Sequence record: PZ445444.1
Reading direction: 5' to 3' (one strand)
From: a phage
Length of the DNA: 64,000 bases
How positions within the stretch are numbered: position 1 is the first letter of the stretch; the number at the start of each line of letters is the position of its first letter. The notes below the pieces were generated by a model that ran no database searches, was not told the DNA's origin, and saw only the letters and a program-made list of their open reading frames with translations. Below, piece after piece: positions 4,951-58,361 of the stretch. Made by a program: the position numbers and the translations under genes.

Positions 4951-5157
4951 TTCGATAGGTATATTTTGCCACCTAGCGGGGCCGCTGTCAACACTTTTCA
5001 AAAAAAAAAAAAAATTTCTAACCTGATGCGCTGACCGCTGCAACCTGGCGGGGCCAGCCTGGCAGGGCCTAACTGACCAGGTAGGAGAGAATGAAGGCTT
5101 GCAAACCTGGTGGGCCTATGCTATAGGATAGATAACAATTGAAGAGGAGGTACAAAA

Positions 5158-5334
5158 ATGGAAGGTAATATGATCCCCCTGGAAAATGTAGCTATTAATG
5201 ACGCTGAGGCTATCGCCCTGGTTGAAAAGGCTATGGCGGGAGCGTTGGAACATAAAGAAGAGTACGAAAAAATGATGGTTAACCTGGCAGGGGCGGCGGC
5301 TGGAGAATTCTACCCAAAAAATAATTTTAACTAA
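5158..5334 (+). CDS. hypothetical small protein
   Basis: 58-aa ORF below the ORF-track cut-off; strong GAGGAGG RBS. Confidence 0.4.
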   Translation: MEGNMIPLENVAINDAEAIALVEKAMAGALEHKEEYEKMMVNLAGAAAGEFYPKNNFN

Positions 5335-5419
5335 TGGTTGACAGCTCGGACAGTTCTTGTTATTCTTATCCTCGCAAGGTGAACAACACCACACCAATTA
5401 ACAGAGAGGATAAAAAATC

Positions 5420-5617
5420 ATGAACGCCTACGGAATTAAAGTACGTCGCAACACTCGCCAGGTGGTCACCAATCAAGTGATTTGCCGGGTGGATGTAACC
5501 ATCAACAACGGGCAAGGCCTTTATAAATTTCGTCGCGGTCATAGCTATACCCTGCAACAGCTTAATCGTTGCGCCCTGACAAAAGGTCAGATCAACCACT
5601 GGTTTAATAAAAAATAA
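5420..5617 (+). CDS. hypothetical protein
   Basis: 65-aa ORF, GAGGA RBS. Confidence 0.5.
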   Translation: MNAYGIKVRRNTRQVVTNQVICRVDVTINNGQGLYKFRRGHSYTLQQLNRCALTKGQINHWFNKK

Positions 5618-5681
5618 GTATTGACATATAGTCCGACACCAAATACACTAAAAGCACAAAAGACACTAAGAGGATAAAATC

Positions 5682-6080
5682 ATGAAAACCACTACCTTTA
5701 ATTTTGATAATGCAGACTTTTCTTTTTCTGATGTCAAGAACTGCCGCCGTGATCGTGGATTTTACAAGGCTTATAATCTGGTGGGCCTGGACGATGACAA
5801 TAATTTGCACGAAGTAGCTGAGATCCGGTATTATGCCGCCGCCAGTGGTAACACTCACTACTGCGTGTTTTGGATTCACGACAACAAGAACAATAAGTAC
5901 GGTTATACTGGCGGCAAGGCGAGCGGTCACGGTTACGATAAAGCTAACGCAGCACTTGAGAGCGCATTAAATGCTATGGGGATCACTGCCGACGGCTGGA
6001 TCTACGAAGAAGAGTTTTTGTCGGCACTTGCTGACCACCTGGGCTATAAAAAGCACATTGTGACATGCGCCCACGAATAA
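5682..6080 (+). CDS. hypothetical protein
   Basis: 132-aa ORF, GAGGA RBS, promoter-like TTGACA upstream. Confidence 0.6.
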   Translation: MKTTTFNFDNADFSFSDVKNCRRDRGFYKAYNLVGLDDDNNLHEVAEIRYYAAASGNTHYCVFWIHDNKNNKYGYTGGKASGHGYDKANAALESALNAMGITADGWIYEEEFLSALADHLGYKKHIVTCAHE

Positions 6081-6163
6081 AAATCATTGACACGCTGCAA
6101 AATTTAAGTAAACTAGACACAAAAGGCGGGAATGTTTCCCGCCAGCACAAAGGAAAAAAGATC

Positions 6164-6559
6164 ATGAATAAGAACGTACGCCGCATCATGAACGAACTGG
6201 CAAACGATGAAAAAATTATTGACATGCATTTAGTCAACATTTGCCGCCGTTGTGTAACATATAACAACCGCGCCGCAAAAGCGCGTGAGATGAACGCAAA
6301 AGGCACCTTAAAGCCCTTTCAGGTGGTTGTAAAATCTATAACCAGTGCAGCAGGCCAGGCGCATGACCACAACAACGGGAGCACTAATATTGATCCGTCT
6401 TACGTAATGAAACGGATCCGGACTTGCAAGAATAAAGAGCAGGTGTATAATGTCATAGACTGGTTGGACTCTATGGGCGATGTGGTTTACAATAGGTTTT
6501 CTGCAGCTATCGAGATCCAGCTTGACAGGTTGGACGGTAAAGTACTGAAAACTTACTAA
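6164..6559 (+). CDS. hypothetical protein
   Basis: in-frame ATG with AAAGGA RBS chosen over the track start at 6065; preceded by promoter-like sequence and leader hairpin 6125-6143. Confidence 0.55.
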   Translation: MNKNVRRIMNELANDEKIIDMHLVNICRRCVTYNNRAAKAREMNAKGTLKPFQVVVKSITSAAGQAHDHNNGSTNIDPSYVMKRIRTCKNKEQVYNVIDWLDSMGDVVYNRFSAAIEIQLDRLDGKVLKTY

Positions 6560-6565
6560 GATTAT

Positions 6566-6606
6566 TTTTAGATGGCCTTGACTTCAGGGCCATCAATAAA
6601 GTAAAC
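6566..6606 (+). repeat. conserved intergenic hairpin/promoter-like element, copy 1
   Basis: TTTTTAGATGGCCTTGACTTCAGGGCCATCAATAAAGTAAAC; 7-bp stem GATGGCC/GGCCATC with TTGAC in the loop. Confidence 0.6.
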
Positions 6607-6759
6607 TAATCCCAGTTAAGCGAAAAAGGAGGCTTGAAGATGAGCACTACACGCCAACACACAAAGGTAACGATTATCGTTTGCATCATTGGTTACATCC
6701 TGGCGCAAATGTTGATGGGTAGCGCCAATGATTTCGCAAAATTTTTCTTAGACTTTTAA

Positions 6760-6787
6760 TTGACAAGCTAACTTAAATCAGTATAAT
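6760..6787 (+). promoter_or_regulatory. sigma70-like promoter
   Basis: TTGACA, 16-nt spacer, TATAAT upstream of ORF 6840. Confidence 0.5.
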
Positions 6788-6839
6788 ACTAAGCACATAA
6801 ACGGGAAAACTTCCCAGAACACCAAAAGGAGAAAACATT

Positions 6840-7190
6840 ATGAATACTTCCATCACTATGACCGCCGAAGAAAAAGCCCTGCAGATCGCCGCTCTGAAAA
6901 AACAGATTGCAGAACTTGAAGACAAGATCGACAATTTTGAAATCGACGAAGACAAGTACGACGATAAATATGATGAATGGTTAGACGAGATCTACGGCGA
7001 AATCATGATCGGAAACATTTCTTTTCTTCCGTCGCGTATCCTCAAGGAGCTAGATCCTATCGCTTACCGCTGCGGATTTAGCGACTACATCGACAGCCTG
7101 GATATTGAGGACGATGAAGAATACCAGGAATTACAGACAGAGCTCGAAGAAGTGAAAGAAGAGCTTGCAGAACTGGAAGAAAACGAGTAA
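6840..7190 (+). CDS. hypothetical acidic coiled-coil protein
   Basis: 116-aa ORF, AGGAGA RBS; D/E-rich. Confidence 0.6.
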   Translation: MNTSITMTAEEKALQIAALKKQIAELEDKIDNFEIDEDKYDDKYDEWLDEIYGEIMIGNISFLPSRILKELDPIAYRCGFSDYIDSLDIEDDEEYQELQTELEEVKEELAELEENE

Positions 7191-7195
7191 ATTTA

Positions 7196-7237
7196 TTTTT
7201 AGATGGCCTTGACCCCAGGGCCATCAATAAAGTAAAC
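7196..7237 (+). repeat. conserved intergenic hairpin/promoter-like element, copy 2
   Basis: near-identical to 6566-6606 (one or two substitutions in the loop). Confidence 0.6.
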
Positions 7238-7279
7238 TTTAGACTGTTAACACTTAACCAATACAGAGGAGTTAAAACC

Positions 7280-7525
7280 ATGGCAGCACTAATCACCAAA
7301 TATTATGCCCCTACCAACACCAAAAGCGCCCGTATCATGGTAAAAGGCTTCGGACGTAAAAAGGTGTACACCTGGGATTATGCCTTAGACACGGAAGACA
7401 ACTACACCAACGCAATGACCGATTTTATTAATGAACTAAATAAGCAGATCTTGACAAGTTATAAAGTGACCGATATTGCTTATATAGGTGAAGGCGGGAT
7501 CTGTTTTGTAGGCATTGTGAAATAG
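7280..7525 (+). CDS. hypothetical protein
   Basis: 81-aa ORF, GAGGAG RBS. Confidence 0.55.
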   Translation: MAALITKYYAPTNTKSARIMVKGFGRKKVYTWDYALDTEDNYTNAMTDFINELNKQILTSYKVTDIAYIGEGGICFVGIVK

Positions 7526-7575
7526 TTATTTTTTCGGTGGTCCTGGTTGCAGGGCCATCTATAAAGATAATTTAT
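7525..7575 (+). repeat. diverged variant of the intergenic hairpin element
   Basis: TTATTTTTTCGGTGGTCCTGGTTGCAGGGCCATCTATAAAG, same arrangement with a substituted stem. Confidence 0.4.
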
Positions 7576-7599
7576 TAACACCATGAAAGGAGAAAGTAC

Positions 7600-7953
7600 A
7601 TGATCAGCGGGGCAAGTTTTATTATTGGCGCTATTGCTACGGCTTTAATTGTAAATAAGATCCAGGATAAAAAGGAAAGAGGAAGTACCGCCCTTGCAGA
7701 ATATCCATTTTGGGCATTCAACGATAACGAAGATTATATTATAAAGTATAAAAATAAAGAAGGTGACCAAGTAACACCGCGACCGATCCCGGCTTACAAA
7801 ATGCAGGAAACACTATACCGCCTGGAGGCGGGAGGCGCAAAAATTGTAGACTTTTGGGGATACGACCACACAGATCAGGAAGTTATAAAGCGCCGTATCC
7901 GGGCTATTCAGGCCAATATTGAAGTTAGCAAGGGGGGAATATATGAAGATTAA
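7600..7953 (+). CDS. hypothetical protein with N-terminal membrane anchor
   Basis: 117-aa ORF, AGGAGA RBS; N-terminal hydrophobic helix. Confidence 0.6.
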   Translation: MISGASFIIGAIATALIVNKIQDKKERGSTALAEYPFWAFNDNEDYIIKYKNKEGDQVTPRPIPAYKMQETLYRLEAGGAKIVDFWGYDHTDQEVIKRRIRAIQANIEVSKGGIYED

Positions 7954-8140
7954 TTTTGAGAAGATTGTAAAGCGATCTCATGATTCCGAAGAGCTGCCGG
8001 AACGACGCCAGCGTAACAATAAACTGAATAAGCCAAAAAGATTTGGAAAGATCTGGCGAAATCATTATGATCGTAAATTGCCTGGCCTACTTTTGGAACG
8101 TGAACGACAGGCAGAACGATACCGCCATAAAGACAAATAA
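7943..8140 (+). CDS. hypothetical basic protein
   Basis: 65-aa ORF from ATG with GGGGGGA RBS, overlapping the upstream gene end. Confidence 0.45.
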   Translation: MKINFEKIVKRSHDSEELPERRQRNNKLNKPKRFGKIWRNHYDRKLPGLLLERERQAERYRHKDK

Positions 8141-8146
8141 CAACCA

Positions 8147-8176
8147 ACGCCCCGCCATTGTGCGGGGCTTTTTATT
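8147..8176 (+). terminator. rho-independent terminator
   Basis: GCCCCGC-cattg-GCGGGGC hairpin followed by TTTTTATTT. Confidence 0.7.
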
Positions 8177-8321
8177 TCTATCCTACAAATAGCGCCCCTG
8201 GTTGGCCCTGTAAGCGCCAAAAAGGCCCCACCTATGCAATCGCCCCCCTTTAACCTGAAAACATCGCTTAGGGCCGTTTTATGGCGTTAAAAATATCATT
8301 GACAGTGATTTTATTTAAAGC

Positions 8322-8349
8322 TTGACATCTTAAACAGGTTAGCTATACT
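8322..8349 (+). promoter_or_regulatory. sigma70-like promoter
   Basis: TTGACA, 16 nt, TATACT. Confidence 0.5.
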
Positions 8350-8381
8350 AACCACATCAAAGAGAGAAAGGAGTAAACGCC

Positions 8382-8642
8382 ATGCGTAAATTAAAAAATT
8401 TTGATAAAGTTGATGTTGTCCTGAATAATTTTTACTACTGCAACAACAAGGCCATTTGGTGGCGTGATAGTTCCACCGATAAAGTTAAAGCTCGCTTTCT
8501 CCAAGGGCACTGGCAAGGCCGTCCAGTGATTAAAATACTGGGGCAACTGGTAGCGTTTAAAAATTGCCGCCGTGTTGATGACGTTGAAGAGATCTTGAAC
8601 ATTTTACGCCACAATAATTTAAAAAATAGTGTTGACAAGTAA
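8382..8642 (+). CDS. hypothetical protein
   Basis: 86-aa ORF, AAGGAG RBS. Confidence 0.55.
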   Translation: MRKLKNFDKVDVVLNNFYYCNNKAIWWRDSSTDKVKARFLQGHWQGRPVIKILGQLVAFKNCRRVDDVEEILNILRHNNLKNSVDK

Positions 8643-8659
8643 ATCTCGATAAGTATACT
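8632..8659 (+). promoter_or_regulatory. sigma70-like promoter
   Basis: TTGACA, 16 nt, TATACT; followed by leader hairpin GGCGGGAAAACTTCCCGCC (8670-8688). Confidence 0.5.
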
Positions 8660-8716
8660 TAAACACACAGGCGGGAAAACTTCCCGCCACTAACAAAGAA
8701 AATAGGAGAAAATATC

Positions 8717-9340
8717 ATGACCACCGTTAACATTACCACAGGTTACAATTTATCTTTCGACGTGCTGACCGACGAACAAAAAGAAAAAGCTATTGAAATG
8801 GTCCGCGAAAGAGAAGAACACAGCGGGGATAATTTTTTTGCAGAAAGTGTAATTGAACACTATAAAGAATATGTCTTTCCAGAGTACGGCCTTGAAGATA
8901 CCGAAGTACGTTGGTCCGGCTTTTGGTGTCAAGGCGATGGCGCGTCAATCAGTGCTGAAAACGTGGATTTAGAAAAATTCTTGCGTAAAGTAAAGGCCCT
9001 GACCAAGTTCCGATCAATTCGTCACTTGTTCGGCACAATGCACGATGGCGAGTTATCAGCCAGTGTTGAACGTATCCCGTTTAGCCATTATCATCACGAA
9101 AACACAATAGGAGGGTGCATCGATACTAATTGGCTAGACCTGACCACCAAGCAAGAGGACAAAGTTGAAGAGCTGGAAGAGCTGATCACCGAGACGGTAC
9201 GGGAGCTATCCCGCAAGGTTTACGTAGACCTGGAGGAGGCCTATCTTGAACAGTTTACTACCGAAAACCTGATCGGCCTTATTGAAGCCAATGATTGGCG
9301 GTTTGATGTGGATGAATATGGGGAGATGAGTTTTTCATAA
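8717..9340 (+). CDS. hypothetical acidic protein
   Basis: 207-aa ORF, AGGAGA RBS. Confidence 0.65.
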   Translation: MTTVNITTGYNLSFDVLTDEQKEKAIEMVREREEHSGDNFFAESVIEHYKEYVFPEYGLEDTEVRWSGFWCQGDGASISAENVDLEKFLRKVKALTKFRSIRHLFGTMHDGELSASVERIPFSHYHHENTIGGCIDTNWLDLTTKQEDKVEELEELITETVRELSRKVYVDLEEAYLEQFTTENLIGLIEANDWRFDVDEYGEMSFS

Positions 9341-9429
9341 ATAAAGTGTTGCAATAATCTAAAAACCTGCTATATTAAAAACTCAAGGGGCGAGATGACT
9401 TGCCCCCACAAAACAAAGAGGAAAACATC

Positions 9430-9810
9430 ATGAAAAACACTACTAAAGCTATTGACACCGTTATGTTTAACCTGGTTACATTCCGTGAAGATATGAAAGA
9501 TCTTCCACGTGAAACAGTGTGCGACCATATCGAAAACTATCGCAAACTAATCAAAGAGTTGCCTTTAAAACGTGACCAGTACGCGGCTAACGCTATGCTT
9601 AACGCCATGATCAAAAAGATGATCCAGTGTGATTTAACTCTGGCCTATGATTATGCAGGCGGTCGTTTTGCAGTATACAATCAGCCCGTGCCCGGTATGA
9701 GCACCACCGAAGAATTGCACGCGTTAAATCTGAAACAAGATGTATGGGATAACATGCCCCGCGTGGTGGTGTGGGCAGAAAGCGGAAAGATTTACGGCGA
9801 TAATTTTTAA
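9430..9810 (+). CDS. hypothetical protein
   Basis: 126 aa from ATG with AGAGGAAAACATC leader, preferred over track start 9400. Confidence 0.6.
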   Translation: MKNTTKAIDTVMFNLVTFREDMKDLPRETVCDHIENYRKLIKELPLKRDQYAANAMLNAMIKKMIQCDLTLAYDYAGGRFAVYNQPVPGMSTTEELHALNLKQDVWDNMPRVVVWAESGKIYGDNF

Positions 9811-9874
9811 TCAGGTAACAGGCGGCATATTTGCCGCCTTATTGTTAAACAGAACTGCAAAAGAGGTACATAGA

Positions 9875-10246
9875 ATGGAATTTATTATTTTGGCTGTAGT
9901 AGTTGCCTTGTTCAACGCCTGGATCGCTGGCAAGATGGGTAGATCCGCTTTTTTATGGTTTATTATATCTATTTTCCTGGGGGTGGTTGCAACTATTGTA
10001 CTTGTTATCCTTGCAATTGTTGACAAGGGGAATAATAGAAAGGGTAAAGTATTTTCAGACCTGTACGACGCTCAAACATTTGTCAACGCCTACTACAGCG
10101 ATCTTCCAGTCTCCCTACGTTGCAGCCTTGCACAACAGGTTTTCGATGAAGCTAAAACCAGAGATCACGCCCATGAGATTTGTTTAACTGAGGCGGATCG
10201 CCTATTTGAGAGGAATAGAAAATATGTGGACCAGCCGTTTAAATAA
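9875..10246 (+). CDS. hypothetical membrane protein
   Basis: 123 aa from ATG with AGAGG RBS; two or three predicted TM helices at the N-terminus. Confidence 0.55.
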   Translation: MEFIILAVVVALFNAWIAGKMGRSAFLWFIISIFLGVVATIVLVILAIVDKGNNRKGKVFSDLYDAQTFVNAYYSDLPVSLRCSLAQQVFDEAKTRDHAHEICLTEADRLFERNRKYVDQPFK

Positions 10247-10465
10247 TGCCACGTTAATTAACCCCTTTAGTGAAGATTTGAAGCCAGCCGCCTGGCGGGA
10301 TGGATTCAATAACGAAAGCTTTATTTTCAGGCCTGATCTTAAGGAATTTTATAACAATGGATCGAACAACGACAGAGATAATTTTTCTTGTAATGTGCGT
10401 GGTGATAATACTCCTGGGGGCCATTGCAAACCACGTCACTGCTAACAGGAGGAAAGGGGGAGACG

Positions 10466-10585
10466 ATGACACCTAAGGATAAGCCCCGCACCGATAAGGC
10501 GCGCCGTGTTATGGTATGGCTTGAGATCATCGCCCTTGAAATATTGTTAGGCGTAGGGATGTATTTTATCGCTGTAAGTAATTGA
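10466..10585 (+). CDS. small membrane peptide
   Basis: 39-aa ORF with strong AGGAGGAAAGGGGGAG RBS; C-terminal hydrophobic helix. Confidence 0.35.
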   Translation: MTPKDKPRTDKARRVMVWLEIIALEILLGVGMYFIAVSN

Positions 10586-10588
10586 TAA

Positions 10589-10630
10589 CGGCCCCGATCC
10601 CTGGGGCCTAACTTTTCAAATTTTTTTCTC
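10589..10630 (+). terminator. rho-independent terminator
   Basis: GGCCCCGATCCCTGGGGCC hairpin followed by a T-rich tract. Confidence 0.55.
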
Positions 10631-10725
10631 CCTGAGTGTTGCAATCCGATCCAGAATATGGATAATAACAATCAACGGGGAGACACTCCCCACCGCATAG
10701 ACAAAGTTCCAAAAGGAGAAACAAA

Positions 10726-10927
10726 ATGAGCAACAATATCCGCGTTATTAACTTCAAAAAAGAAGAAAAAAATTGCCGTGCTGATTGACGGTCAAGAAAT
10801 CTTTAAAGGTGATTATGAAGATCATCAAACGGCGATTAGTATCACTCGCGTGATTGGTTACCATAATTTTTACCCTCAAGGCGCTGAGGCAGCAGTAAAA
10901 CGAATTAAAGAGATTGTAGGCCTGTAA
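10726..10927 (+). pseudogene. small ORF interrupted by a +1 frame break at an A7 tract (possible slippage site or homopolymer error)
   Basis: ATG with AAGGAGA RBS; frame 0 stops after 20 codons; removing one A from GAAAAAAATTG gives a continuous 65-codon ORF ending at 10927. Confidence 0.4.
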
Positions 10928-10934
10928 AATTTAT

Positions 10935-10975
10935 TTTTAGATGGCCTTGACTCCAGGGCCATCAATAAAGTAAAT
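10935..10975 (+). repeat. conserved intergenic hairpin/promoter-like element, copy 3
   Basis: TTTTTAGATGGCCTTGACTCCAGGGCCATCAATAAAGTAAA. Confidence 0.6.
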
Positions 10976-11018
10976 TTAAACCCTGTTAAAATAATCAGTG
11001 CAAAAAGGAGTAATGATC

Positions 11019-11318
11019 ATGTTTATCCAGGCTAATAATCTTTATTTCTTTGATGGTCAGATCGTAGACGGCGTGGAGGTGGAAATCACCGGGTGCCCTG
11101 GCGGTCAGGTTATGACTTTTCGGAATAATGCCTTTGATGATTCTCATATCGTTATGAGAATGGAAGTTAGTAAGCTGGATGACAAGAAAACACTCATTGA
11201 TTATTCCGTGAAAGATCATCCAGACTACCACATGATCTATGGTGATTTGTGCATTGTTGACCGTGACAAGGTGGGCGGCATTGTGATCGCTATTGTGAAC
11301 GATGTTTTCTCAAACTAA
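11019..11318 (+). CDS. hypothetical protein
   Basis: 99 aa from ATG 8 nt after AAGGAG. Confidence 0.55.
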   Translation: MFIQANNLYFFDGQIVDGVEVEITGCPGGQVMTFRNNAFDDSHIVMRMEVSKLDDKKTLIDYSVKDHPDYHMIYGDLCIVDRDKVGGIVIAIVNDVFSN

Positions 11319-11335
11319 TTTCAGCAGGTGATTTT

Positions 11336-11686
11336 ATGAAAGTAAAACTATATTACCTTAATGAGCTTAACCCCCTTGCCCAGGTCCGCGCCCTGGCTAA
11401 TACCTTGATTTGTGAGAAATCTGTATATTGTGTTGAGCTTAACTCCATGCGTGAACGTCTCAAAGGTGGTTACTTTGACATCCATGCTGCAATCAACGGC
11501 CTGAATATGGAATTTATCCGCTTACGTAACAGCCGCCAGAATCTGGCAAGAATGGAACAAGATCCGGCCCACCTTCGTAAGCTGGTTATTGAAAATCATC
11601 TAATGTTTAATGCCGATGGTGATTATTACCATTTTCACCGTAAACGCTGGTACCGTAGCGGCAATATAGGAAAGAATGCAAAATAA
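11336..11686 (+). CDS. hypothetical protein
   Basis: 116-aa ORF. Confidence 0.6.
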   Translation: MKVKLYYLNELNPLAQVRALANTLICEKSVYCVELNSMRERLKGGYFDIHAAINGLNMEFIRLRNSRQNLARMEQDPAHLRKLVIENHLMFNADGDYYHFHRKRWYRSGNIGKNAK

Positions 11687-11720
11687 GGCCCCTGGCAGGG
11701 CCTGCAGCGATATAATCACA

Positions 11721-11756
11721 TAAAGGCTATGCGGTTGCATAGCCTTTATTATTTTG
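11721..11756 (+). terminator. rho-independent terminator
   Basis: AAGGCTATGC-ggtt-GCATAGCCTT hairpin followed by TATTATTTT. Confidence 0.65.
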
Positions 11757-11891
11757 GCGTTACAGCGGCCCCCAAGGCGCTTAAAAAAATTTTTAAAGAA
11801 GTACTTGCATCAAGTCCTACAATATGGATAATAAAGGGTGTCGGGGGGGTGAGGCCTCCAATCATTAACCGGATAGATAGGAGTTAAAACC

Positions 11892-12176
11892 ATGGCTATT
11901 GTTACCGTTGGCGATGTAGTAGAAATGGAAGCCAAATACTTAAAAGCTGGTATGCATATCATACGGAATGATCAAGAATTGTTATTAACCATGGTTGAAT
12001 ATAATCCCGGTCAGGATTATCCAAGCACTGACTACTTTTTCCAGTATGTTGATGAAGAATTAAAAGAGGATGAGGCTTATCAGGGTGAATTTTGTAATTT
12101 CTTTTGCCCTGATGAGGTTGTAAAAGTTATCTATCAACCTGGCGTACCTTTCCCGCTGCACGCTATCAACAAATAA
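11892..12176 (+). CDS. hypothetical protein
   Basis: 94-aa ORF, AGGAG RBS. Confidence 0.6.
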   Translation: MAIVTVGDVVEMEAKYLKAGMHIIRNDQELLLTMVEYNPGQDYPSTDYFFQYVDEELKEDEAYQGEFCNFFCPDEVVKVIYQPGVPFPLHAINK

Positions 12177-12231
12177 ACCTGGCGGGGCCGAAAAGGCCCC
12201 CAATTATGAAAATAAAGAGAGGCAAATCATC

Positions 12232-12465
12232 ATGATGGAACAAATTAAACGCGCCGAGGCTATTAATGGCAACGTGATCTATTTTGTCAGCAAAAACGAA
12301 AAAGGCGTACCCTATGCGGCGGTAATAGTACAGCCTGACGGCGATTATTGGTGTACTGTGTACGGCGCTTATTCTTTTGGGCGTCCAGTGCATGATAAAA
12401 TTTTGAAAGTAGCGAACCCTACCGGGAAAAATATCACAGCAGAAAAATTTTTTGAAAATAGTTGA
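12232..12465 (+). CDS. hypothetical protein
   Basis: 77-aa ORF, AGAGAGG RBS. Confidence 0.55.
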   Translation: MMEQIKRAEAINGNVIYFVSKNEKGVPYAAVIVQPDGDYWCTVYGAYSFGRPVHDKILKVANPTGKNITAEKFFENS

Positions 12466-12489
12466 CATGACCATATAAGACTGTAGTAT
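12462..12489 (+). promoter_or_regulatory. sigma70-like promoter
   Basis: TTGACA, 16 nt, TAGTAT; then leader hairpin GGGGCAAGCCCC. Confidence 0.45.
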
Positions 12490-12536
12490 ATAAATCAAAG
12501 GGGCAAGCCCCACCAACCACAAAGAGGATAAAAATC

Positions 12537-12716
12537 ATGGCTATTATTGCAAAGACTGAGATCGTAGGCTTGGATTCTATTCTCCTCGCATATGAGGAAG
12601 CTATAGAAATGTATGTGGTTTCCTATGGTGAGTATATCCGTGAATATAAATCTATTGATCTGGCTTTTGAATGTTATATTCGCCAGGTTAATAAAGCGTA
12701 CGATGATTATCGTTAA
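12537..12716 (+). CDS. hypothetical small protein
   Basis: 59-aa ORF below track cut-off, AGAGGA RBS. Confidence 0.45.
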   Translation: MAIIAKTEIVGLDSILLAYEEAIEMYVVSYGEYIREYKSIDLAFECYIRQVNKAYDDYR

Positions 12717-12806
12717 AATAGTTTGAAAACAAACAACCATCTTACAAAGCATAATACATAAGGCGGTGGAATGGTCCGCCACCTGGAACAAGAAGAGGAA
12801 AACAAA

Positions 12807-12911
12807 ATGAAACAGAAATTAATTGATGCGGTGATCCTGGTTATTGCCCTGGGTATTGGCCTGATTGCAACCATGGCTAATGTGATCTTGTCTTCCAACG
12901 GTATCGGGTGA
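12807..12911 (+). CDS. small membrane peptide
   Basis: 34-aa ORF, AGAGGAAAAC leader; hydrophobic core. Confidence 0.35.
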   Translation: MKQKLIDAVILVIALGIGLIATMANVILSSNGIG

Positions 12912-12920
12912 GGTTGGCAA

Positions 12921-13136
12921 ATGATCACTAACAAAACAGGCAAAACGGAATTTTTACGCAACTTACAGATCGGCAAGCCTGAGATCTGGTATTGCACTAA
13001 AACACCACGTGACGAAATGAAAGACTTCACCGCCACGCTGCAACGGGTAAAGATATCCATCACGCAGAAAAAGGCCTTGATAGTGGTGGAAGGTGAGATC
13101 CCTCAAACCGTTGTTATAGTTGAGCGTACAGCATAG
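12921..13136 (+). CDS. hypothetical protein
   Basis: 71-aa ORF. Confidence 0.5.
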   Translation: MITNKTGKTEFLRNLQIGKPEIWYCTKTPRDEMKDFTATLQRVKISITQKKALIVVEGEIPQTVVIVERTA

Positions 13137-13227
13137 TTTAATTTATACCGATACCCGAAAATTAACCAACAAAGCATAAACAGGCGGTTACCGCCGCCTT
13201 AAACGTAGCAGAAAGAGGATAGACACA

Positions 13228-13512
13228 ATGAAAAAGATGATCGCAGTGGTTGCCCTGGTTGTTGGACTTAATGCGCCTGTAATGGCTAAAGAGCTGGCAA
13301 AAGAGGTTAATCTAACGGATATTCATGCCGTCAATCGAATCGGGGTTACTTATCGCTTATGCCTTGCCGCTAAAACTTTTAAGGACGGCACGACAGAGTA
13401 CTACGGATTCGAAGGTGTCCGGTGCGGTGAACTTGCTCGCGACCTTAAGGAAGATCCAGACCTGGAGGATCTGCCCATCACCGTAAACGGGAAAACTTAC
13501 GTAAACCGTTAA
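13228..13512 (+). CDS. hypothetical secreted/periplasmic protein
   Basis: 94-aa ORF, AGAGGA RBS; N-terminal signal-peptide-like MKKMIAVVALVVGLNAPVMA. Confidence 0.6.
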   Translation: MKKMIAVVALVVGLNAPVMAKELAKEVNLTDIHAVNRIGVTYRLCLAAKTFKDGTTEYYGFEGVRCGELARDLKEDPDLEDLPITVNGKTYVNR

Positions 13513-13514
13513 CC

Positions 13515-13649
13515 ATGATAAAGATAATCATCACCTTGGGGATTGTGGCGGGATCGCTGGCGCTCTTTCTCCTTATGGTTAGGTATGTGCTGATCGGTAT
13601 TGTCCTGGTAGTCAGTGATCTATTGGAAACGGTTGGCACCTTGTTTTAA
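13515..13649 (+). CDS. small membrane peptide
   Basis: 44-aa hydrophobic ORF starting 3 nt after the upstream stop. Confidence 0.3.
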   Translation: MIKIIITLGIVAGSLALFLLMVRYVLIGIVLVVSDLLETVGTLF

Positions 13650-13661
13650 AGAGCGGTAAAA

Positions 13662-13853
13662 ATGAATATCGAACAAGTTAGAAAGGTATTGGCGGTACTG
13701 CGTTATCATAATCATAGAAAGGTCATAGACGATCCTGATTATGTCGATTCAAGCCTGGAAGGGGATACACTACAAGCCATAAGTAACATGCAAGAATTGC
13801 TAAAGCGCATGACAGAGAAAAACCGACCGGACTACATAGGCGAAAAAATATAA
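13662..13853 (+). CDS. hypothetical protein
   Basis: 63-aa ORF. Confidence 0.5.
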   Translation: MNIEQVRKVLAVLRYHNHRKVIDDPDYVDSSLEGDTLQAISNMQELLKRMTEKNRPDYIGEKI

Positions 13854-14065
13854 TCCTTATAAACTACAAAACAGGGCTTGCAATGGTCCTGTTTTTTGTT
13901 ATACTTGTTTCACGGCAGGCACCTGGTGACGGGGGGAGACAATCACCGGGTGTGCCTGCTATATAAAAACTATAAAAACCGTTGACATCTGCCAGGTGGT
14001 GGGGTAGCATTTATCTCGAAGGGGGCAAAAGCGCCCACACAACAACCGGAAGAGAGGAAAACGCC

Positions 14066-14338
14066 ATGTTAAGCTGGATTAACCAAGAAGTTGAATCACG
14101 TTTCAATGCTATTTGGGATCTCATCGAAAAAGAGGACGGAACATCAAGCCCTTATCTCAATAATCTTGAATTCCATTTCGTGGAAGCGATGAACGCAGAA
14201 CATGATCACGAAGGTGGTGCGGATGAATTCGCTAAAGGATATGGCTTCAACAATGCCAACGAAATGATCGAGGCGGTTGTACTCCAGGCTGAGGAAGATT
14301 ATCAATTAAAAACGCTTGAATTCTGCCGCCGTAAGTAA
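14066..14338 (+). CDS. hypothetical acidic protein
   Basis: 90 aa from ATG with AGAGGAAAAC leader, preferred over track start 13982. Confidence 0.55.
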   Translation: MLSWINQEVESRFNAIWDLIEKEDGTSSPYLNNLEFHFVEAMNAEHDHEGGADEFAKGYGFNNANEMIEAVVLQAEEDYQLKTLEFCRRK

Positions 14339-14400
14339 TAAGATAATGACACAGGCCAAAAGGCCCACTAAACAAAAACCACATAAAGAGGAAAAACATC

Positions 14401-14664
14401 ATGAAACGCCTTGATCAGCTCAAATTAGTTCAATATATGGCTTATCGTGTTCTTGAAGTCCAGAAAGGTAGCAAAAAAGAGGTTTGCGAGAAAGCTTATA
14501 AGATCTTCACTCGCAAAAAAGATGATTGGATGTTACGCCAGACCAAAAAAGCCGATATCTTGGGGTACCTGGAAGAAGAGATCCGGCTTGAAGAGCAAGA
14601 AGAGATCCGCCGCAGTGAGGCAGATTATCAGGCAGCTTGGGAAAACTGGATGAATAACAAATAA
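14401..14664 (+). CDS. hypothetical protein
   Basis: 87-aa ORF, AGAGGAAAAACATC leader. Confidence 0.55.
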   Translation: MKRLDQLKLVQYMAYRVLEVQKGSKKEVCEKAYKIFTRKKDDWMLRQTKKADILGYLEEEIRLEEQEEIRRSEADYQAAWENWMNNK

Positions 14665-14730
14665 TACAACAAGTTACATGGTCAGGGGCAATAAAGCCCC
14701 TTGATCACATAAAAATTATGCCATCCTTGG

Positions 14731-14759
14731 TTGACAGGGATCGGCAGTTTTGCTATATT
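14731..14759 (+). promoter_or_regulatory. sigma70-like promoter
   Basis: TTGACA, 17 nt, TATATT upstream of ORF 14809. Confidence 0.5.
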
Positions 14760-14808
14760 CTTTTTTGAAGGGAAGTTGTAAGAAAATTAACTAAGAGGTA
14801 AAAACACC

Positions 14809-15228
14809 ATGAACATTAAATCTAATAATCCGGCATATAGCTTTGATAACGCTTTTTGTCACGGTCCGGCGGCGAAAGGATTCGAAATCGATGGTAAACT
14901 AGTTATTGTCAATGTTGACGGGGAAGAGGTTGCAGTATATCCGGTGGCAGACGTTAAAAGCCGTCTACAATGCCGCATCGATGTTACCGCCTACCAGCTT
15001 GATCCGGTCCGGGTAGTTGCCCTGGTCCTGGAAGAAGAAATTAAAGCAATGCACCACAGCAACAAGTTTATTGGTGACGCTCAAGATAATATGAAGGTGT
15101 GCCGCCATAAAGTTAATGAAGTGCTTAAAGAATATGGCTTTAAAGATCTGATGATCAAACGTGAGGAAAAATTCCGCTACCGTAACGACCTGGCAAATCG
15201 GATTTTTGAAATATACGAATCATTATAA
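14809..15228 (+). CDS. hypothetical protein
   Basis: 139-aa ORF, GAGG RBS; last gene of the rightward block. Confidence 0.6.
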   Translation: MNIKSNNPAYSFDNAFCHGPAAKGFEIDGKLVIVNVDGEEVAVYPVADVKSRLQCRIDVTAYQLDPVRVVALVLEEEIKAMHHSNKFIGDAQDNMKVCRHKVNEVLKEYGFKDLMIKREEKFRYRNDLANRIFEIYESL

Positions 15229-15246
15229 TTTCTTAACTGAATTATC

Positions 15247-15275
15247 AAGGGGCTTAAAGGCCCCTTTCTTTTTGT
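15247..15275 (+). terminator. rho-independent terminator
   Basis: AAGGGGC-ttaaa-GGCCCCTT hairpin followed by TCTTTTTG. Confidence 0.65.
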
Positions 15276-15879
15276 CTGCTCTTCTCCTACCATAAACGGC
15301 CCTACCTGGCAAGTGGAATAATTGACTAGCCATCAATCCCACATACTGTACAAATATACATTGAAAATAACTATTGCATAATTTTTCATTGTGTGGTAGC
15401 AGGGCCATTTTTACCCGTTTTCTCTCCCAAAAGTGCACGTAATGCCGCTATTGCACAAATTTTAACCTGATGCACATCTCCAATATCTTGTCAACAACTA
15501 AAAATCTTTATAAGTCATACACTTACACAGCATCGAAAGCGTGTTCTACGCGAAAAATAGAGTATAACTATAGCCGCCAGATCTCAGAATTCACGTACGC
15601 ACGCCATTCTATAGCCTGCAAAGTATTTATTCCAACCACAGAATAAAGGAATAGTCAATACCTGCATAAAATAATTATTCGTGTAAACTGCATAACATAA
15701 ATCAGCTCAGGTGTCAACATTTTTCGTAAACAGCCCGAAATTATCACGATGAGTTATCATAAACAGAGAAATCTTTAGTCGTCTAATGTTTACTGTACAT
15801 TACTATACTGACTGGAATCATTAGATGACTAAGAGAAAGATAAGAAATAATTAATAATGTAATTGTTTTACCTGTAACA

Positions 15880-16145
15880 ATAAGGCAACTATGCAAACGA
15901 ATGGCATGGCGCGACGGAGTCGCGACATAATATAAAAGCAGTAACCATCACCCCCGTGATAGTTTGTCTGCAAACTATTAATCAGATCATAGTTGCCTTG
16001 TATTTAGTTAATCATGACATAACAAGCAAGGCAACTATAGATCTTATAATAGTTGCCCTGCTTTTATATTATGTCATGCTAATTATAATCAGTGCGATTA
16101 TTGTCATGTATAATTATTGTCATGCAAACGAATGGCATGGCTGAT
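15880..16145. repeat. cluster of direct and inverted repeats
   Basis: GCAAACGAATGGCATGGC at about 15893 and 16125; CAAGGCAACTAT with inverted ATAGTTGCCTTG copies; ATTGTCATG repeated. Confidence 0.55.
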
Positions 16146-23499: not shown

Positions 23500-23581
23500 A
23501 ACGTGTTCCTTTTAAAGAAGAGGGAACCAAACCCTCTTTGAAAACAATGATACTAAATCTGAAGCGTTGTGTCAACAGTTT

Positions 23582-58204: not shown

Positions 58205-58278
58205 ACCAGTAAAAACTTAAATATCTGTACTATAAGGATTCGTATGTTTTATGTTCGTCATGGAACGGATACTATTAA

Positions 58279-58361
58279 CTGTCCGTGATACGGACACTAC
58301 TGTCCGTCACGCGGACACATCTGCCCGTAATACGGACACTAACTGTCCGTGATACGGACAC
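58279..58361 (+). repeat. four tandem ~21-bp repeats, each an inverted repeat TGTCCGT-nnn-ACGGACA
   Basis: CTGTCCGTGATACGGACACT / ACTGTCCGTCACGCGGACACAT / CTGCCCGTAATACGGACACT / CTGTCCGTGATACGGACAC. Confidence 0.7.

Follow-up and report, generated by a model that had tools for sequence, protein, structure and literature searches.

The Early Gene Array

The stretch of phage DNA described here, 64,000 nucleotides (nt) of sequence record PZ445444.1 and hereafter called the window, carries on its plus strand, from position 1 to about 16,000, an array of small early genes, and the element in question is a short GC-rich hairpin that recurs in the leaders of these genes just downstream of their promoters. 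Nearly the whole array is labelled "hypothetical protein" in the related records inspected, and the genes from 18,000 to 56,000 lie on the minus strand. Over the region 6000–14,500 the DNA shares 98.6% identity with Escherichia phage nom and 92–97% with rV5 and many other Vequintavirus members, and by this sequence identity the window belongs to an rV5-like coliphage of Vequintavirus. The orthologous region was taken from 12 other vequintaviruses (83–99% identity) and each leader was aligned. These relatives were drawn from GenBank phage records, because an IMG/VR search with a neighbouring protein of 207 amino acids (aa) returned two close loci only.

When all annotated genes were read, the leaders fell into four kinds: eight with a strong host-type (sigma-70) promoter followed by a hairpin, three with a hairpin and only a −10-like box, four with a palindrome that holds the −35 box in its loop, and some with a promoter and no hairpin (5621, 8322, 14731 and 2759). 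The early array has 15 promoters in the same direction within about 9 kilobases (kb). The initial annotation had ascribed one shared layout, with the hairpin at a constant position, to at least ten early genes. That holds for eight leaders and not for eleven, because the hairpins at 12762, 13182 and 14354 lie at other distances from the −10 box (2–6 nt) and have no acceptable −35 box; two units missing from its list, with hairpins at 6803–6815 and 11845–11859, also fit. The hairpins it had quoted at 6125–6143, 8670–8688, 9387–9406, 12500–12511, 12762–12780, 13182–13199 and 14354–14365 are in place, GGGGAGACACTCCCC is present with a shift of one base, at 10677–10691, and the one given as near 14013 lies 8 nt away, at 14021–14036.

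Eight Promoter–Hairpin Units

The eight units that have both a promoter and a hairpin are all on the plus strand, and the gap quoted for each is measured from where the −10 box ends to where the stem begins. The promoter of unit A (6087–6114; TTGACA, 16 nt spacer, TAAACT) is followed after a gap of 10 nt by the hairpin GGCGGGAAtgtTTCCCGCC at 6125–6143, an 8 base-pair (bp) stem of −14.6 kcal/mol (z −5.1) that is kept in the variants of the relatives, with the ATG at 6164. Unit B (6760–6787; TTGACA, 16 nt, TATAAT) has the hairpin GGGAAaacTTCCC at 6803–6815, at a gap of 15 nt (12 nt in most relatives), and its ATG at 6840, while unit C (8632–8659; TTGACA, 16 nt, TATACT) has GGCGGGAAaacTTCCCGCC at 8670–8688 with a gap of 10 nt (z −5.5) and its ATG at 8717. 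In unit D (9349–9376; TTGCAA, 16 nt, TATATT) a TG precedes the −10 box, and the hairpin GGGGCGAGatgaCTTGCCCC at 9387–9406, which includes one G.U pair, lies at a gap of 10 nt with the ATG at 9430. Unit E (10639–10666; TTGCAA, 16 nt, GATAAT) has GGGGAGacaCTCCCC at 10677–10691, again at 10 nt, with the ATG at 10726 and a canonical terminator (10590–10608) 70 nt upstream. The promoter of unit F (11805–11832; TTGCAT, 16 nt, GATAAT) was read directly; it is missing from the list produced by a promoter scan because its −35 box matches at three of six positions only. Its hairpin GGGGGtgaggCCTCC at 11845–11859 contains a G.U pair and lies at a gap of 11–12 nt, with the ATG at 11892 and a terminator upstream at 11720–11749. 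Unit G (12462–12489; TTGACA, 16 nt, TAGTAT) has GGGGcaagCCCC at 12500–12511, at a gap of 10 nt, and its ATG at 12537, and unit J (13982–14010; TTGACA, 17 nt, TAGCAT) has GGGGGCaaaaGCGCCC at 14021–14036, also at 10 nt, with one internal mismatch (the relatives have GGGCAaaagTGCCC), its ATG at 14066 and a terminator upstream at 13868–13895.

The stem thus starts exactly 10 nt past the −10 box in six of the eight units (A, C, D, E, G and J). The promoter scan, run blind over the plus strand of the whole window, gave 112 promoter-like sites, and five of these had a perfect GC hairpin at a gap of exactly 10 against 0.21 expected (Poisson P = 2.8e-6), an enrichment that was unchanged when the null was limited to the intergenic parts of the early region. 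For folding, a canonical start 7 nt past the −10 box was used, and energies were expressed as z-scores against dinucleotide shuffles. From this predicted start the RNA of each of the eight promoter units begins with four unpaired nucleotides; the hairpin (−5.5 to −14.6 kcal/mol) follows, and the leader beyond it is open. The hairpin is the sole stable structure of each leader, and most units leave the Shine–Dalgarno (SD) sequence unpaired when folded in this way; the z-scores of units A, C, D and E range from −3.8 to −5.5. A C-A start motif stands at positions 7–8 past the −10 box in the hairpin units, and we infer from the sequence that transcription begins 7–9 nt past that box. The predicted leaders of the hairpin units are 41–53 nt long, with 20–35 nt between hairpin and ATG, versus 25–26 nt for the hairpin-less promoters.

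Beyond the hairpin, the "CA-rich tract" of the initial annotation is better described as rich in A, with some C but little G or U (A 56%, C 24%, G 11% and T 9% between hairpin and SD). The exact ribosome-binding string it had quoted, AAAGAGGAAAACATCATG, occurs once, at 9415, and other leaders carry variants of it, GAGGA(A/T)A in seven units and AGGAG in four. The SD core (GAGG or AGGAG) begins 12–13 nt ahead of the ATG in all 11 leaders. The genes downstream of the eight units are hypothetical proteins in every related record inspected. The gene after unit E (10726–10790) has a frameshift relative to phage nom, with A7 versus A6 at about 10766–10772, that cuts a product of 66 aa to 20 aa; unless the extra A is a sequencing error, the gene is a pseudogene.

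The three further hairpins of the array are those of units H (12762–12780, ATG 12807), I (AGGCGGttaccgCCGCCT, 13182–13199, ATG 13228) and K (GGCCaaaaGGCC, 14354–14365, ATG 14401), all on the plus strand. Unit H has a −10-like CATAAT 6 nt upstream and no −35 box, and an indel breakpoint of the relatives falls inside its hairpin; unit I has no canonical promoter and a −10-like CATAAA; unit K, whose stem is GGGCC..GGCCC in relatives, has GATAAT 6 nt upstream and no acceptable −35 box. The leaders of H and I (12715–12760 and 13150–13180) have in common the motif ACAAAGCATAA just 5′ of their hairpins, again with no −35 box, which may indicate that they use another class of promoter, or that the RNA is processed there. 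At 12184–12200, 8 nt past a stop codon, lies the hairpin GGGGCCgaaaaGGCCCC, with neither promoter nor U-tract and kept in every relative, which could serve inside an operon to stabilise 3′ ends or to block processing. Beyond the early array, the sole comparable unit in the window is on the minus strand, with TTGACA from 23575, a 17 nt spacer, TATCAT, a gap of 8 nt, the hairpin AAGAGGGtttggttCCCTCTT at 23518–23538, an SD and an ATG.

Conservation of the Pairing

The position of the hairpin is constant in all aligned relatives and its sequence varies. In unit A, phage MiataMamis has GGCGGTTGAtacTCAGCCGCC in place of GGCGGGAAtgtTTCCCGCC, with four inner pairs swapped (GGAA/TTCC to TTGA/TCAG), and in one relative (L012) the hairpin is the reverse complement, an in-place inversion that is also seen in unit I, where the hairpin of phage SYGMH1 is the reverse complement of that in the window. 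Unit D exists in three stem versions, GGGGCGAG..CTTGCCCC, GGGGCAA..TTGCCCC and GGCGGGCGA..TTGCCCGCC, which include a two-sided insertion (GGCGGGC..GCCCGCC). One pair of unit F is G-C in three sequences, G.U in four and A-U in two. Disruptive stem changes are few: a C.A in unit C of MiataMamis and a G.A in another relative (L011). Among ten aligned units, variable columns make up 61% of the loops, 24% of the stems, 36% of the flanking gap and tract, 26% of the stretch from SD to ATG and 15% of the −10 hexamer. The claim that structure rather than sequence is conserved is thus borne out across the 12 related genomes, with stems kept and their sequences changing. A palindrome over the −10 box of the promoter at 8322, GGTTAGCTATACTAACC, has a similar look; since it is not conserved in relatives it was set aside as a chance occurrence and served as a negative control.

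The strand on which the pairing acts can be read from its wobble pairs. In a strand-symmetric search that accepted both G.T and A.C, 44 distinct promoter-proximal hairpins gave 13 G.T versus 4 A.C, or 12 versus 2 when coding-sequence matches were left out (binomial P 0.006–0.02). The excess of G.U over A.C indicates that the folded strand is the plus strand, the sense strand of the mRNA. Together with the geometry of the promoters, this bias makes a 5′ stem-loop on the early mRNAs, as the initial annotation had proposed, the best-supported anatomy, given the predicted starts. The hairpin itself is a real, statistically strong and evolutionarily maintained feature.

Spread to Other Phages

Eight other vequintavirus loci were used for a histogram of the gap between −10 box and hairpin, over offsets from −30 to +40 and on both strands. 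The gap was 10 nt in 22 cases, 11 in 12 and 12 in three; no other offset in that range was found, and the opposite strand of these loci had no gap peak. The same layout is abundant in Avunavirus 24-2-1, with gaps of 11–12 nt, and in Seunavirus PVP-SE1 (119–127 kb), with gaps of 8–10 nt, for example TTGCAA..TTACAT-tattaatcaa-GGCGGGAGAGGTTCCCGCC. It is abundant too in the unrelated Asteriusvirus jumbo phage 121Q (137–146 kb), where the gaps are 12–14 nt and the hairpin is present in eleven of about 25 leaders. The 121Q promoters that lack a hairpin share this promoter and start region, which there run straight into the leader, so that the hairpin has the look of a module of about 20 nt that can be present or absent.

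Several observations bear on how these cassettes may have travelled. A stem sub-family, (G)CGGGAA-NNN-TTCCCG(C), is found in units A, B and C of the window and in 121Q, PVP-SE1 and Avunavirus, and the motif ACTAAC after the hairpin recurs across 121Q, Avunavirus 24-2-1 and PVP-SE1; the recurring stems and this motif suggest an exchange of cassettes between unrelated enterobacterial phages. The early protein of 207 aa encoded 3′ of unit C (8717–9340) has homologues of 58–60% identity in 121Q-like jumbo phages and of 33–46% in RaK2, GAP32 and Erwinia jumbo phages, and to judge by these identities the phage groups have traded this gene, either together with similar cassettes or into them. Avunavirus 24-2-1 has in addition, at 5790–5850, 8870–8930 and 10040–10100, a −10 box within the hairpin loop (ATGCCGTGatagaatgCACGGCAT, TGCCGCtttataatagGCGGCA), a third placement of the stem-loop. 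In the literature searched, neither the fixed +5 hairpin arrangement nor its spread over Vequintavirinae and Asteriusvirus is described. The principle, a 5′ hairpin with a strong ribosome-binding site and cassettes of promoter and stem-loop, is known.

Relation to Known Systems

The nearest known elements are the promoter-early stem-loops (PeSLs) of RB49/phi1, PST and nt-1 (Arbiol et al. 2010, PMC2839356; Comeau et al. 2014, PMC4122927), which combine a strong sigma-70-like promoter with a Gn-loop-Cn stem-loop in hyperplastic, ORFan-rich regions and have been proposed to stop upstream transcription and to drive modular shuffling. PeSLs and the units of the window are both intergenic modules of about 100 bp in such regions. 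Each combines an AT-rich stretch at its upstream end with a sigma-70 early promoter close to consensus and a Gn-loop-Cn stem-loop, and its A/C-rich leader carries an SD ahead of the ATG. Both are also associated with gene indels that distinguish close relatives. Indel breakpoints among the relatives fall at 12766 (in hairpin H), 12467 (the −35 box of G), 12791–12822 (leader H), 14367–14394 (leader K), 13210 and 8299–8304, although intergenic DNA is where viable breakpoints would be expected in any case. The two differ in where the stem-loop sits. It lies inside the promoter in the PeSLs of RB49 and just upstream of it in those of PST and nt-1, so that the local transcript would not include it, whereas in the window units it begins 10 nt past the −10 box, lies within the predicted transcript and has no U-tract. 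In 30 kb of RB49, hairpin starts cluster at −24 to −22 and at −16 to −13 from the end of the −10 box, and none peak at +10. PeSLs, moreover, have been described for T4-like phages only, and their stem-loop is read as a terminator.

A placement outside the local transcript, as in PeSLs, is found in none of the eight units and only in the four GATGGCC..TTGAC..GGCCATC elements of the window. These are copies of a repeat of about 45 bp that resembles a classical PeSL (6565–6610, 7196–7241, 7530–7575 and 10934–10979; ATTTATTTTTA-GATGGCCTTGACnnCAGGGCCATC-AATAAAGTAAACT). Each has a 24 nt palindrome (6571, 7202, 7536 and 10940) with a 10-bp stem and a TTGAC −35 box in the loop, a TAAACT −10 box 18 nt beyond the −35 box, and no U-tract on either strand.

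The hairpins of the units share with Rho-independent terminators their GC-rich stems of 4–9 bp and loops of 3–6 nt, but they have no U-tract on the plus strand and lie 10 nt downstream of a promoter. The genome paper of rV5 lists promoters and terminators and does not list these hairpins, two of them are labelled terminators in the record of phage EdH4, and the records of HdK5 and Alma have terminator features in this region, the overlap with hairpins being established for EdH4 only. From a different part of phage biology, the leader of T7 gene 10 (phi10) has a 5′ stem-loop (GGGAGACCACAACGGTTTCCC), an A/U-rich enhancer and a strong SD, the same three-part phage solution, although it is served by a late promoter of T7 RNA polymerase, its hairpin starts from +1, and it is a single case versus about ten per genome here. 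Among bacterial mRNAs, ompA and papA resemble the units in having a hairpin a few nucleotides from the 5′ end (a predicted end here), an unstructured leader and a strong SD, with structure mattering and sequence being unimportant (PMC3997798, PMC7509114). The ompA leader, in contrast, has no sequence relationship to the units and is 133 nt long with two hairpins, compared with 41–53 nt and one hairpin, whose function here is deduced by analogy.

A Proposed 5′-Terminal Stabiliser

By analogy with the ompA leader, the leading explanation, which we put at about an even chance, is that the hairpin is a 5′-terminal stabiliser working with a strong ribosome-binding site. Each cassette would consist of a near-consensus sigma-70 promoter, a short A-rich start region, a transcribed GC-rich stem-loop of 4–9 bp about 2–4 nt from the mRNA 5′ end (roughly +3 to +5), and an unstructured A/C-rich leader of 20–35 nt with a strong SD 12–13 nt before the ATG. 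The hairpin would pair the 5′ end in such a way that RppH and the 5′-monophosphate sensor of RNase E could not engage, and a ribosome on the strong, structure-free site would shield the remaining leader. It would thus be a 5′ add-on: in the hairpin-less leaders of 25–26 nt the 5′ end would sit beneath the initiating ribosome, and the add-on view fits because the leaders of the hairpin units are longer, yet have 20–35 nt between hairpin and ATG. The units resemble PeSLs in being modular, in their ORFan-rich setting and in the indel breakpoints that fall in them, with the stem-loop moved from the promoter into the predicted transcript.

Published work on mRNA decay gives this proposal its basis, since RNase E cleavage is more than tenfold faster when a 5′-monophosphate is accessible than when the 5′ end is base-paired, and the ompA and papA mRNAs are stabilised by 5′ stem-loops together with strong SDs (PMC3997798; PMC7509114). 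The gp11 of rV5 is a probable homologue of Srd (PMC3606486), the T4 protein that boosts RNase E on host mRNA (PMC4980113), and a 5′ shield would be useful because an Srd-like protein would stimulate RNase E. Stabilisation of mRNA, one of the two roles that the initial annotation had suggested, is on these analogies plausible.

A number of points weigh against a stabiliser. The literature searched on rV5-like phages and Vequintavirus contains no transcription start site or transcriptome data, and the two to four unpaired 5′ nucleotides are a prediction. The hairpin of ompA reportedly works within a limit of 2–4 unpaired 5′ nt, and the gap of 12–14 nt in 121Q implies 5–7, above that limit. For RppH, 2–3 unpaired nt suffice. 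Some of the stems are weak, those of units G and K being only 4 bp long, and units F and G, with z-scores near 0, are not separable from shuffles by energy. About a dozen other strong promoters of the window, mostly on the minus strand between 18 and 56 kb, have no hairpin; because of this the hairpin tracks the hyperplastic ORFan region, which a mobile cassette of the PeSL type would do irrespective of any role in RNA. RNase E can scan past simple or orthogonal stem-loops that lie away from the very 5′ end (PMC9943677), and a simple stem-loop would therefore protect only when it is practically at the 5′ end. Lastly, a PeSL stem-loop of RB49 that has no obvious U-run lowered downstream lacZ expression to a similar extent as rrnB T1 (PMC2839356), and some attenuation by the hairpins is possible for this reason.

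Alternative Readings

That attenuation is the actual task is an unlikely but substantial alternative. Here the hairpin would be a PeSL-type attenuator or insulator that stops or weakens read-through from the early promoters upstream and so keeps expression from building up along the array, and its location downstream of the local promoter would be tolerated or incidental. The stem-loops of the RB49/phi1 PeSLs have been called effective terminators or attenuators, one of them lacZ-tested (PMC2839356), and the crowding of same-direction promoters in the array, the terminator features in the EdH4, HdK5 and Alma records and the hairpins at junctions with no promoter of their own (12184, 12762 and 13182) would all suit such a role. 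None of the hairpins, however, is followed by a U-tract on the plus strand (their tails include AGCACAAA, ACTAACAA, CACAAAAC, ACCGCATA, ACCAACCA and ACACAACA), and termination at +5 to +23 would cut short the RNA started at the consensus promoter 10 nt upstream just as well. Where transcription does end, the phage relies on canonical U-tract terminators (at 8149, 9820, 10590, 11720, 13868 and 15247), three of which stand directly before hairpin promoters; these are the canonical terminators of units E, F and J, 50–120 nt upstream of their promoters. An attenuator, furthermore, needs no fixed distance from the −10 box, and the RB49 stem-loops lie at −24 to −13 rather than at +10. For the +5 class a terminator reading as such is unlikely on sequence grounds, because there is no U-tract, transcripts of the unit's own promoter would abort, and E, F and J already have terminators.

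A device for early elongation or promoter escape, in which the nascent hairpin folds behind RNA polymerase at about +30 and blocks backtracking, aids the release of sigma or otherwise raises the output of a strong promoter, is distinctly improbable. A hairpin set at a constant distance from the −10 box, as in four Vequintavirinae genera and in 121Q, would be expected of it, as would the near-consensus promoters, at which escape is said to be limiting. The literature searched offers no precedent, though, equally strong promoters of the same genome have no hairpin, and the gap differs between genera, from 8 to 14 nt. No more can be said for a purely DNA-level palindrome, whereby GC-rich inverted repeats would persist as recombination substrates that shuffle ORFan cassettes, by the mini-circle mechanism put forward for PeSLs, with no function in RNA; we regard this too as quite unlikely. 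Gene-content breakpoints do fall in or near the cassettes (12766, 12467, 14367–14394 and 12791–12822), hairpins have been inverted in place, and recombination within PeSL loops has been published (PMC2839356). Against this, the excess of G.U over A.C and the GC/GU/AU series point to selection on the folding of one strand, recombination alone leaves the fixed distance from the −10 box unexplained, and intergenic breakpoints would arise in any case.

It is very improbable that the hairpins are intrinsic terminators of the minus strand that halt antisense transcription from the convergent 18–56 kb block. A scan does list 6143–6125, 8688–8670, 10695–10673, 13199–13182 and 6816–6802 as terminator-like on that strand, the reverse complement of several hairpins being followed by T-rich DNA because the start region is A-rich. 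Yet the wobble asymmetry favours the plus strand (12–13 versus 2–4), the T-runs are poor in most units (GTTGATTG, TGTGTGTT and TTCGAGAT), the point of convergence already has terminators (15247 and 16852–16833), and the array has no strong promoter on the minus strand. Just as improbable is a site for one protein, be it an early repressor at +5 to +23, an antiterminator like lambda N at boxB, or the translational regulator envisaged in the initial annotation: perfect palindromes at a classical roadblock position, boxB-like loops (GAAAA at 12190, AAAA at 14358) and the stem sub-family that recurs in A, B, C, 121Q, PVP-SE1 and Avunavirus speak for it, but stem and loop sequences differ among units and drift within a unit, the loops evolve fastest, and a boxA-like element is absent. 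The translational regulator in particular finds no support, there being no common loop or stem sequence. A search of 5000–16,000 against Rfam in E-value mode gave no family match and a single sub-threshold chance hit. Antitermination at a lambda-type nut site by N was rejected on the heterogeneous, fast-evolving loops, the lack of boxA and the lack of an Rfam match; an RNase III site, on stems of 4–9 bp that are said to be too short for that enzyme; and an RNA thermometer or sequestration of the SD, on the unpaired SD of most predicted folds.

Other Features of the Window

Two non-coding features lie outside the units. Upstream of the early array, at 4998–5012, there is an unbroken run of 15 A. 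At 58275–58360 the inverted repeat TGTCCGTnAnnCGGACA is present in four tandem copies (one degenerate, TGCCCGT) at a spacing of about 21 nt, and in sequence these repeats look like iterons or operator sites.

Meaning for the Phages

The broadest proposal, which we hold to be unlikely, is that the units form a distinct regulatory class in large virulent enterobacterial myoviruses (four Vequintavirinae genera and the jumbo Asteriusvirus), one that would mark early mRNAs as "self" against an RNase E activity that the phage itself would stimulate, through its Srd-like protein, to destroy host mRNA, and/or would let local polymerases pass and attenuate those reading through from upstream. The hairpins also correct a habit of annotation, as such hairpins have been deposited as terminators (two in the EdH4 record), and they widen the PeSL idea, in which mobile promoter cassettes shuffle ORFans, beyond the T4-like phages, to units whose stem-loop must have a different job. 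Should the hairpins prove to be 5′ shields, each genome would be a natural library holding some ten short and portable 5′ stabilisers, and there would be a simple, sequence-level rule for how the first mRNAs of rV5-, PVP-SE1- and 121Q-like coliphages, which are therapeutic candidates, survive while the mRNA of the host is being destroyed.

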